DNA from: Clostridiales bacterium | GTDB lineage: Bacteria > Bacillota > Clostridia > Christensenellales > DTU072 | Assembly: GCA_012520515.1 (NCBI GenBank) | Contig: JAAYOD010000027.1 | Span: 920 to 64,919, forward strand | Reading direction: 5' to 3' | Length of the DNA: 64,000 nucleotides | Shown: positions 2,719 to 4,287 of the stretch, one piece after another | How the letters are laid out: each line of letters begins with the position of its first letter | How positions within the stretch are numbered: position 1 is the first letter of the stretch | The notes under the pieces: model-generated | What the model was told of the DNA's origin: nothing | The model's input: only the letters and a program-made list of their open reading frames with translations | Databases searched by the model: none | Position numbers and translations under genes: made by a program

Positions 2719-4287
2719 ATGGTAAATAAATTCACACAGTTTTTGACAGAGTTTTTTAGAATATTCTTTGGCGGAATATTGGGCTTGTTTTATTCCAGTC
2801 CTAGCGTTAATAACCGTGGCGGAGTAATTGGAGCTATACACCAGATGTTTGACATTCCTCAGTACATAGATTTGTATAAAAATTACAAGAGTGAATTGTC
2901 CGCTGGTCAACTTATTGGCGCTATACTATGCTTTATACTGGTTATTGCAGTTTTTATCTTACTAATATGGTTGGCTATTTTCTTTGGCAAAAGGTTTTTT
3001 AAAAAAATATTTGGCGACAAAGTCCTTAACCAAGATTTAGTAGACGAAATAGACACGCTTAGAAAAGAGCTTATAAAAACCACCAAAGAAAAGGATAGAA
3101 TTCTTGGCCTTAAGATAGCTTATCAAGGCTATGATATCCTAGAAGGTGAAGAAGGCGAACAGACATCAGGCGAAAAGAAAGAAGGCGAAAGCCGTTTCTA
3201 CAAGCTTACTGAAGTTGATACCTTTTACGCAGACCCTGAGTATACGCCCAGAGAATATGACAACAGCTTTACATTAGAGCAAATTTGCGACCGTTTTAGA
3301 AACTATGCCGCAAATAACCCTGACCGTCCATGGCGTAAACTATACTATGAGCCAAAGATAGTTAGGCTTTTCTTTGCCAGCTTGGCTACCACAAGATTGG
3401 TTATTTTACAAGGTATCTCTGGTACTGGTAAAACATCACTTCCAGAAGCTATTGGACACTTTTTAGACAATCCAGCTACCATTGCCTCCGTACAGCCGTC
3501 ATGGCGTGACCGTACAGAGCTATTTGGATACTTTAACGAATTTACCAAGCGCTTTAACGAAACTGAAATATTAAAGAGCATGTATGAAGCCACCTTTAAC
3601 GAAGATGTTTATATCACAGTTCTAGACGAAATGAACATCGCGCGTGTGGAATATTACTTTGCAGAAATGCTATCTATTTTGGAAATGCCGTCGCGTGACC
3701 AATGGGTTATTGACCTTGTGCCTAGCGGTTGGCCTAGCGACCCCAAACATGTAATTAAAGGGCGTTTCCGCCTACCTGAAAATATGTGGTATGTTGGCAC
3801 AGCTAACAACGACGACTCCACATTTGCAATATCTGACAAAGTTTACGATAGAGGTATGCCCATTAACATTAACTCCAAAGCCGCTGCATTTGATGCGCCG
3901 CTTACTGAAAAGCTACCTATTAATTACAAACATCTAGAGAGTTTATTTAAAAAGGCTCAAGAAGAACATAAAGTTAGCGAAGAGAACTTGAAAAAATTTG
4001 AAGACATGGACGACTATGTTATCGAACACTTCCGTTTAGCGTTTGGTAATCGTATTGTCAAACAGCTAGTGGAGTTTGTTCCTGTCTATGTCGCTTGCGG
4101 CGGCACTGAAATTGATGGACTTGACTATGTGCTGTGCAACAAGATTTTGCGTAAGTTCGAATCTCTTAACCTTGCATACATCAGAGACGAAGTGGACGAC
4201 TACATAAAGTATCTTGATGACCATTTTGGCAAAGAGAATATGCTAGAGTGTAAAGACTATTTAGCAAGGCTAAAGAAACTATTCTAA
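2719..4287 (+). CDS. Membrane-anchored McrB-like AAA+ NTPase (probable GTPase)
   Basis: 522 aa. The TM helix LIGAILCFILVIAVFILLIWLAIFF is followed by GKRFFKK (positive-inside rule, so the ATPase domain is cytoplasmic). Walker A is GISGTGKT (3411-3434). Walker B is VLDEMN (3619-3636), followed by IARVEYYFAEMLSILE. VGTANNDDST carries an NxxD motif. These match the McrB/AAA_5 pattern (DEiNRa..s.vFGEl..llE and MNxxDR signature) from memory. Confidence 0.7.
   Translation: MVNKFTQFLTEFFRIFFGGILGLFYSSPSVNNRGGVIGAIHQMFDIPQYIDLYKNYKSELSAGQLIGAILCFILVIAVFILLIWLAIFFGKRFFKKIFGDKVLNQDLVDEIDTLRKELIKTTKEKDRILGLKIAYQGYDILEGEEGEQTSGEKKEGESRFYKLTEVDTFYADPEYTPREYDNSFTLEQICDRFRNYAANNPDRPWRKLYYEPKIVRLFFASLATTRLVILQGISGTGKTSLPEAIGHFLDNPATIASVQPSWRDRTELFGYFNEFTKRFNETEILKSMYEATFNEDVYITVLDEMNIARVEYYFAEMLSILEMPSRDQWVIDLVPSGWPSDPKHVIKGRFRLPENMWYVGTANNDDSTFAISDKVYDRGMPININSKAAAFDAPLTEKLPINYKHLESLFKKAQEEHKVSEENLKKFEDMDDYVIEHFRLAFGNRIVKQLVEFVPVYVACGGTEIDGLDYVLCNKILRKFESLNLAYIRDEVDDYIKYLDDHFGKENMLECKDYLARLKKLF

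Follow-up and report, generated by a model that had tools for sequence, protein, structure and literature searches.

A predicted membrane-anchored McrB-like GTPase of the CoCoPALM kind in a secretion-associated gene module of a Clostridiales bacterium

McrBC is the textbook example of a DNA-restriction motor, and its structures (PDB 6HZ4, 6UT6) are the basis for the ring of six subunits and the partner-triggered GTP hydrolysis that are proposed below. Bell et al. (eLife 2024, PMC11090510) gave the name CoCoPALM to NxD GTPases that are fused to an FtsB-like transmembrane segment and a coiled coil and are encoded beside signal peptidases. There, the class is covered in one paragraph and deferred to a future publication. 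The paper also describes the CoCoNuT systems (CnuB/CnuC), for which a role in defence is predicted; their GTPases possess a long soluble N-terminal coiled coil and occur together with nucleases and RNA-binding domains. Here, we analysed a McrB-like gene at positions 2719-4287, together with its neighbours, in a stretch of 64,000 nucleotides from a Clostridiales bacterium (the window; assembly GCA_012520515.1, contig JAAYOD010000027.1, positions 920 to 64,919 of the forward strand). All coordinates refer to this window. Judged by sequence and by the published description of the class, the locus belongs to the named but uncharacterised CoCoPALM kind, and nothing that was tested contradicts this membership.

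The locus was filed under CoCoPALM, a class that is set here by its published description and not by sequences, because it shares the architecture, the peptidase, the coiled coils and the NxD feature. The GTPase is of the NxD type and McrB-like, and its predicted N-terminal transmembrane helix (residues 65-89) is followed by a coiled-coil helix (residues 104-134). The next gene encodes a putative McrC homologue with a coiled coil, and a gene of the signal peptidase family (SipW type, 6503-7240) adjoins it. Coiled coils would thus be present on both proteins and may pair; that of the GTPase is short (about 30 residues), and the helix in the partner has about 330 residues. CoCoPALM is further described as a large clade that occurs mainly in Bacillota, which resembles the distribution reported below. 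A difference concerns the reported FtsB homology, which was not reproduced with Pfam hidden Markov models at E-values up to 10. An earlier reading of the locus (the original prediction), made from the DNA and its open reading frames (ORFs), had called an anchored architecture unusual for the McrB family; this architecture had already been described by Bell et al. The predicted features of the GTPase and its partner are listed here with the evidence for each.

2719 to 4287, plus strand: membrane-anchored McrB-like (NxD-clade) GTPase, 522 residues (ORF list, PDB searches, alignment, AlphaFold2 model, hhalign)
2911 to 2985, plus strand: transmembrane helix, residues 65-89, followed by the basic flank KRFFKK (Kyte-Doolittle profile, flank charges, conservation, AlphaFold2 helix 62-97)
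3016 to 3120, plus strand: short helical stalk, possibly a coiled coil, residues 100-134 (AlphaFold2 helix 104-134, conserved residues)
3121 to 3186, plus strand: disordered acidic linker, residues 135-156 (low confidence in the AlphaFold2 model)
3361 to 3951, plus strand: AAA+ NTPase core, residues 215-411 (aligned to residues 184-379 of E. coli McrB; motif residues invariant in the family)
4334 to 6502, plus strand: McrC-like partner, 722 residues (Pfam DUF2357, annotation of homologues, composition)

The GTPase ORF starts with ATG, and a GAGGA sequence lies 12 nt 5' of this codon. All motifs quoted in the original prediction were found in the 522-residue product. GISGTGKT (residues 232-239, nt 3412-3435) is the Walker A motif. 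D303 and E304 within VLDEMNIARVEYYFAEMLSILE (residues 301-322) constitute Walker B, with VLDEMN encoded at nt 3619-3636. GTANNDDST (residues 360-368) contains the sensor-1 motif N363-N-D365-D366 (nt 3805-3816), and LIGAILCFILVIAVFILLIWLAIFF (residues 65-89) is the hydrophobic helix. R378 is a candidate arginine finger. The predicted motif set of Walker A, Walker B, sensor and arginine is intact. Two samples were used to judge conservation, namely an alignment of 30 close homologues and 150 representatives of the wider family. NNDD is invariant in the former and can indeed be read as NxxD, the signature that had been assigned to it. Among the 150 representatives, the motif has the form GTAN-x-D-[D/E]STF and includes NKDE, NHDE and NRDE. 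The conserved pattern is therefore N-x-D-[D/E] with the invariant aspartate at the third position, which makes the signature the NxD variant and not NxxD. Bell et al. note that this variant is "usually followed by a glutamate or a second aspartate" (PMC11090510).

The hydrophobicity of the anchor helix greatly exceeds chance: its Kyte-Doolittle profile peaks at a 19-residue mean of 3.46, compared to a usual threshold of about 1.6. An AlphaFold2 model of the GTPase, which was built on the 30 homologues and has a mean predicted local distance difference test (pLDDT) score of 74, contains continuous helices at residues 62-97 and 104-134. These are followed by a disordered acidic linker (135-156; pLDDT below 50 for residues 132-154), the AAA+ alpha/beta core and a helical C-terminal lid. 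All 30 aligned homologues keep the transmembrane helix, the basic flank and the next helix (VLNQDLVDEI..L+.E..K...EKDRIL), and the conserved positions of this stalk are D106, L107, E110, L114, E124, K125, R127, I128 and L129. A transmembrane segment is thus present, and both the KRFFKK flank and the short coiled-coil-like linker that had been proposed to follow it were recovered, the latter as a predicted helix. The 15 residues after the transmembrane helix contain five K/R and one D/E, and the 15 residues before it contain two of each kind. According to the positive-inside rule, this asymmetry places the ATPase domain on the cytoplasmic side of the membrane, which agrees with the proposed orientation of the motor. 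The hydrophobic helix does lie in the region preceding the AAA+ core, but this region comprises about 210 residues and not the approximately 100 that had been estimated. A weaker hydrophobic or amphipathic helix, which is also conserved and may be a second membrane segment, is located at residues 4-22.

No DNA-binding family was detected by Pfam at the N-terminus of the GTPase; the transmembrane helix and the stalk are found there instead. A membrane anchor with a short helical stalk takes the place of the DNA-reader domain of McrB, as the original prediction had proposed for this McrB-family NTPase. The comparison of N-terminal regions that it had suggested yielded three architectures around one core among the 150 representatives. 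The first, to which the present protein belongs, has one or two N-terminal transmembrane helices and a length of about 450-540 residues. Two clear transmembrane helices occur in the N-terminal region of some relatives, and most of the shorter relatives within this length range have a predicted N-terminal transmembrane segment as well. Proteins of the second architecture contain four to six transmembrane helices and have about 550-730 residues. Those of the third are CoCoNuT-like, with a long N-terminus free of transmembrane helices and a total of about 700-870 residues; their core is about 40% identical to that of the GTPase. The polytopic McrB-like relatives with four to six predicted helices include P0162, P0166-P0171, P0181, P0183, P0193 and P0200, among others. 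We noticed no mention of a polytopic architecture with an N-x-D-[D/E] core in the accessible text of Bell et al. (PMC11090510). In another homologue (P0070, 646 residues; L004:10001-11941), the region from sensor to lid is duplicated internally, which may be real or an assembly artefact.

Searches at the sequence level placed the core with McrB. When all PDB chains were searched with the single sequence, E. coli McrB was the only match (E 7e-7, residues 215-411), and a search of PDB sequences with the family profile likewise returned McrB only (E 2e-7). Aligned by hhalign, the GTPase family and E. coli McrB gave a probability of 97% and an E-value of 1e-10. The top NCBIfam match was the McrB equivalog, far under its curated cutoff. 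A placement among MoxR- or dynein-type AAA_5 proteins was rejected, as the Pfam AAA_5 match remained below its cutoff (20.1 bits, cutoff 22) and the profile search of the PDB gave McrB only. The AAA_5 family also holds McrB. A Foldseek search of the GTPase model against the PDB yielded dynein, NorQ, MCM, BrxL and T. gammatolerans McrB with E-values of 2e-5 to 1e-4, and further matches included Lon and RavA. The TM-scores were low and the matches generic for AAA+ proteins. Since the E-values are alike for dynein, NorQ, MCM, BrxL and McrB, Foldseek does not discriminate between AAA+ clades. No sequence-profile search chose MoxR or dynein, and the assignment to McrB made in the original prediction stands. 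The GTPase can be described as a McrB-like AAA+ protein of the N-x-D-[D/E] clade on the strength of these alignments; we infer its hexamer formation and its nucleotide preference.

Compared to E. coli McrBC (PDB 6HZ4, 6UT6, 7VSR), about 200 residues of the core can be aligned, including Walker A, Walker B and the sensor-1 Asn; an Arg of the GTPase aligns with the RRR motif, and the gene order, NTPase followed by activator, is the same. The differences are the N-x-D-[D/E] signature, the association with the membrane and the lack of both a DNA-binding domain and a partner nuclease. The features of canonical type IV restriction, a modified-DNA-binding domain on McrB and a PD-(D/E)xK nuclease in McrC, were accordingly not found. 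With CoCoNuT, as described by Bell et al., the locus shares the N-x-D-[D/E] clade, DUF2357-containing McrC homologues that often lack the PD-(D/E)xK nuclease, and prominent coiled coils. It differs from CoCoNuT by the membrane anchor, the absence of a nuclease and its secretion-related neighbours.

The gene of the putative partner is preceded by an AAGGA ribosome-binding site in front of its ATG. DUF2357 was detected at residues 58-156 (nt 4505-4801; Pfam E 8.8e-8, 32.1 bits, cutoff 23.3), and the conserved region extends to about residue 260. Homologues carry the corresponding family PF09823 and are named 'DUF2357 domain-containing protein'. Neither Pfam nor PADLOC detected a nuclease family in the partner, and no D or E after residue 150 is invariant in an alignment of 27 homologues; the PD-(D/E)xK nuclease of canonical McrC is thus not recognisable. 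From about residue 395 to the end (nt 5516-6499, about 330 residues), the protein is predicted to form a charged helix rich in E, K and R with a polybasic tail. Across loci, the C-terminal region consists to 46-97% of E/K/R/Q/A/L, about half of the proteins end in a polybasic tail, and the length of the helix varies from 150 to 800 residues. In an AlphaFold2 model of the first 400 residues (pLDDT 69.5), the most conserved stretch, residues 65-135, is predicted to be disordered. As this stretch is conserved and yet disordered in the monomer model, it may fold only in the complex, like the finger of McrC. A search of PDB sequences with the partner profile returned only low-complexity matches to charged helices and was disregarded. 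The partner is best described, from its sequence features, as a McrC-type protein that has kept DUF2357, has lost the nuclease and carries a long charged helix instead.

The neighbouring genes encode a predicted signal peptidase and three secreted or membrane-anchored proteins.

51 to 974, plus strand: membrane-anchored protein, 307 residues, conserved first gene of the module (ORF, transmembrane helix, homologues)
990 to 1832, plus strand: secreted paralogue 1, 280 residues, putative SipW-type signal peptide ending VSTATYAWYSA (Kyte-Doolittle peak 2.64)
1825 to 2676, plus strand: secreted paralogue 2, 283 residues, putative SipW-type signal peptide ending LSTATFAWFSA (TIGR04088 below cutoff)
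6503 to 7240, plus strand: SipW or archaeal-type signal peptidase I, 245 residues (TIGR02228, NF046067, transmembrane helices)

The peptidase matches TIGR02228 with 55.8 bits (cutoff 51.85) and NF046067, SipW, with an E-value of 9.4e-19 that is under the curated cutoff. Its transmembrane helices span residues 16-49 and 175-210, and a charged cytoplasmic tail follows the second, C-terminal helix. In the protein encoded at 51-974, a basic N-terminal tail (about 50 residues) is followed by a transmembrane helix at about residues 55-78 (Kyte-Doolittle peak 2.81) and an extracytoplasmic domain. Most related loci encode a homologue of this protein (E 1e-8 to 1e-90) upstream of the GTPase. Its C-terminal motif W-L-E-G-W-D-E-D-C bears a weak likeness to the secreted paralogues (hhalign E 6.5e-4, probability 27%). 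The signal peptides of the two paralogues end in STAT[YF]AW[YF]SA at the end of the hydrophobic region, and T-x-A-W is invariant in the family alignment. TIGR04088, which represents the SipW-dependent-type signal peptide, scored 15.1 bits on paralogue 2 (cutoff 19) and matched five of 18 members of the paralogue family at E-values up to 1, the best being 0.0011.

This arrangement is reminiscent of the B. subtilis tapA-sipW-tasA operon, where a SipW-type peptidase is likewise encoded beside secreted proteins whose signal peptides end in an aromatic-rich motif. We know of no NTPase in that Bacillus operon. A second difference is that no Pfam family, Peptidase_M73 (TasA/camelysin) included, was recognised in the mature proteins, and homology to TasA was for this reason not called. 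All homologues of paralogue 2 are annotated as hypothetical and lack a Pfam domain.

The genes of the module are co-directional and either overlap or are separated by 0-46 nt. For the analysis of synteny, 80 loci of GTDB species and four metagenomic loci were kept. In these 84 loci, the McrC-like gene follows the GTPase gene, with one intervening gene in a minority. In a subset of Christensenellaceae (L019-L022, L024, L028, L072), the inserted gene is S26 peptidase-like and comparatively long (264-480 residues); in L027, it is an orf51-like gene. One or two S26 peptidase genes occur in nearly all related loci, and most of them contain an upstream gene with an [ST]xT[FY]AW[FY][ST] signal. The clusters encode two to four paralogues, secreted or anchored in the membrane, whose signal peptide is putatively of the SipW type. 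A co-directional gene for an EAL protein, a phosphodiesterase of cyclic di-GMP (c-di-GMP), lies upstream in 28 of the 50 related loci with enough flanking sequence; this count comes from related loci, as the window itself begins too late to reach the respective position. One example is L032:4098-5474, with equivalents in 27 other loci, sometimes together with HD_5. In Oscillospirales versions, about 3.5 kb separate the McrC-like gene and the second peptidase (L032, 11465-15064; L031, L034, L040, L044, L046, L053, L061, L064, L065, L069). In L032, this space holds four extra co-directional genes (205-380 residues) with no Pfam match, which may be additional components.

A scan of GTDB with one genome per species gave at least 581 confirmed hits. 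The respective genomes belong to Christensenellales, Oscillospirales (Acutalibacteraceae, Ruminococcus, Faecousia) and some Bacilli, and the identity to the GTPase is 52-88%. Its database relatives amount to more than 8,000 protein clusters. Identity is 54-87% for the best 120, of which nearly all that bear a name are called hypothetical and one is labelled AAA family ATPase. None of 279 matches among 72,556 plasmids covered the GTPase in full length (at least 80% coverage), the core alone being matched there, and no mobile-element genes were seen beside the module in the loci examined. The identity of 52-88% across orders and the absence of full-length plasmid copies indicate a housekeeping-like behaviour.

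The exact sequence is present in metagenomes of anaerobic-digester, biogas, landfill and sludge origin that come from several studies. Metatranscriptome contigs span positions 1-3204 and 3177-6457 and cross gene borders, which is consistent with an expressed polycistronic operon. At two places within the GTPase gene (3170-3204 and 3401-3444), the sequence is joined by metatranscriptome contigs of other strains, which then diverge; these loose ends point to several co-existing variants of the gene in the same digesters. A scan of positions 1-7700 for promoters and terminators gave counts equal to the shuffled expectation and was uninformative.

The most likely role of the module, which we propose with moderate confidence, is NTP-driven assembly or control of a surface fibre and not DNA restriction. 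Six GTPase subunits would form a ring as in McrBC and would be held under the membrane by their six transmembrane helices. The DUF2357 segment of the partner (residues 65-135) would plug into this ring and trigger the hydrolysis of GTP. More speculatively, the work or the switching of the ring might be relayed through coiled-coil contacts, for which the long helix of the partner, the charged cytoplasmic tail of the peptidase and the basic cytoplasmic tail of the 51-974 protein are candidates. In this way, the ring would control or drive the steps by which the secreted subunits are cleaved, released and polymerised to give a fibre or matrix on the cell surface. In loci with an EAL gene, the gene product probably provides a c-di-GMP input. 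The module would accordingly represent a restriction-type motor that has been exapted for envelope biogenesis instead of DNA cutting. A more specific proposal is that Gram-positive bacteria possess a hitherto unrecognised machine for surface fibres with the McrBC motor as its engine in the cytoplasm. In this machine, the GTPase ring and its partner would couple hydrolysis to SipW cleavage and to the polymerisation or retraction of new secreted subunits. This we put forward only tentatively, as a possible though doubtful extension. If true, it would constitute a route of pilus biogenesis that is distinct from the sortase, type IV, chaperone-usher and TasA routes and is widespread in gut and digester Clostridia.

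Several points weigh against a fibre-assembly role. To our knowledge, the TasA fibres of B. subtilis need no ATPase, and a motor is therefore not an obvious requirement. The secreted paralogues matched no family in Pfam, NCBIfam or the PDB sequences except for the SipW-signal match under its cutoff, so that their nature as fibre or pilus subunits is only putative. A Pfam scan of the N-terminal 150 residues of the GTPase, again with E-values up to 10, gave no DivIC/FtsB match. With hhalign, the similarity of the partner family to E. coli McrC was undetectable, which is a further difference from the E. coli system, and Foldseek with the model of the first 400 residues found nothing better than E 0.18. 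The McrC identity of the partner therefore rests on DUF2357 and gene adjacency. The metatranscriptome contigs may contain DNA carry-over. Finally, the literature search that yielded no later paper using the name CoCoPALM and no description of the module beyond Bell et al. also found neither an experiment on any CoCoPALM member nor the follow-up promised in that paper.

Among the alternatives, a regulatory switch or chaperone resembling MoxR survives best, and even this we consider unlikely. The ring and its partner would act on the SipW peptidase or on uncleaved precursors by gating or remodelling them, and a signal in the cytoplasm, for example the GTP pool or the state of c-di-GMP, would switch matrix production on or off. 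Anatomy and synteny fit this explanation as well as they fit the assembly of a fibre, and nothing at the sequence level separates a switch from a motor. The MoxR-type systems NorQ-NorD and RavA-ViaA resemble the module in that a ring works with a dedicated partner on a non-DNA substrate, and NorQ and RavA are among the Foldseek neighbours of the GTPase (E about 1e-4). In contrast to these systems, profiles choose McrB, and the partner contains DUF2357 and not a VWA domain. The frequent upstream EAL gene would also suit a switch, as would the charged cytoplasmic tail that follows the second transmembrane helix of the SipW protein. In B. subtilis, SipW also has a regulatory function, for which its C-terminal tail is required. 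What a simple switch leaves unexplained is the very long helix of the partner, both here and over the range found in other loci.

A function in anti-phage or anti-plasmid defence, where a membrane-bound McrBC-like sensor would trigger abortive infection or block entry at a fibre receptor, is clearly less probable. It would be in line with the match of the PADLOC defence candidate PDC-M26A to the GTPase core (E 1.5e-37), with the about 40% identity to the long CoCoNuT-like relatives devoid of transmembrane helices and with the origin of the whole clade, which Bell et al. derive from type IV restriction systems (PMC11090510). However, PADLOC gave no match for the partner, the peptidase or the anchored protein, and no nuclease or other effector domain was found in the GTPase or the partner. 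The conserved identity and fixed synteny across orders are unlike the patchy, fast-evolving pattern of defence islands, and neither the plasmid survey nor the flanking genes indicated mobility. A factor for cell division or envelope integrity that combines an FtsB-like anchor with a TolA-like charged helix and is unrelated to the neighbouring secreted proteins is highly improbable: Bell et al. describe the anchor as homologous to FtsB (PMC11090510) and one partner homologue is labelled 'cell envelope integrity protein TolA, partial' by NCBI, but Pfam finds no DivIC/FtsB in the N-terminal 150 residues, the name TolA is most likely due to the low complexity of the charged helix, and the genes beside the module in the loci examined encode secretion substrates and peptidases and no division proteins.

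If the assembly of a surface structure is the function of the module, this membrane-bound branch, which lacks DNA reader and nuclease and is encoded among secretion genes, would clearly exemplify the re-use of a defence motor for envelope biogenesis. The module is very common in Christensenellales, Oscillospirales and their relatives, groups of high abundance in guts and anaerobic digesters, and every one of its components is annotated as hypothetical. Knowing its product could explain adhesion, aggregation or biofilm formation in anaerobes that are hard to culture. Even a plain description of the full gene set, of the link to c-di-GMP and of the polytopic relatives would be new, the class having been named and treated in a single published paragraph. 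To that description, the present analysis adds likely substrates, a second peptidase, the link to EAL proteins and the polytopic relatives.

Convergent with the operon, an uninterrupted ORF of 12,034 residues extends over positions 7462-43566 on the minus strand. Its N-terminal signal is of the lipoprotein type (ending LMASLVAC). Neither its first nor its last 3,000 residues matched a Pfam family at E-values up to 1e-4. It was not regarded as part of the module, since it is located on the opposite strand, carries a lipoprotein signal and not a SipW signal, and has no homologue in the 84 related loci. Its 3' end is covered by metatranscriptome contigs. The G+C content across the window is 35-41% (2-kb windows), and the closest named relatives are metagenome-assembled genomes of Christensenellales and Clostridia.

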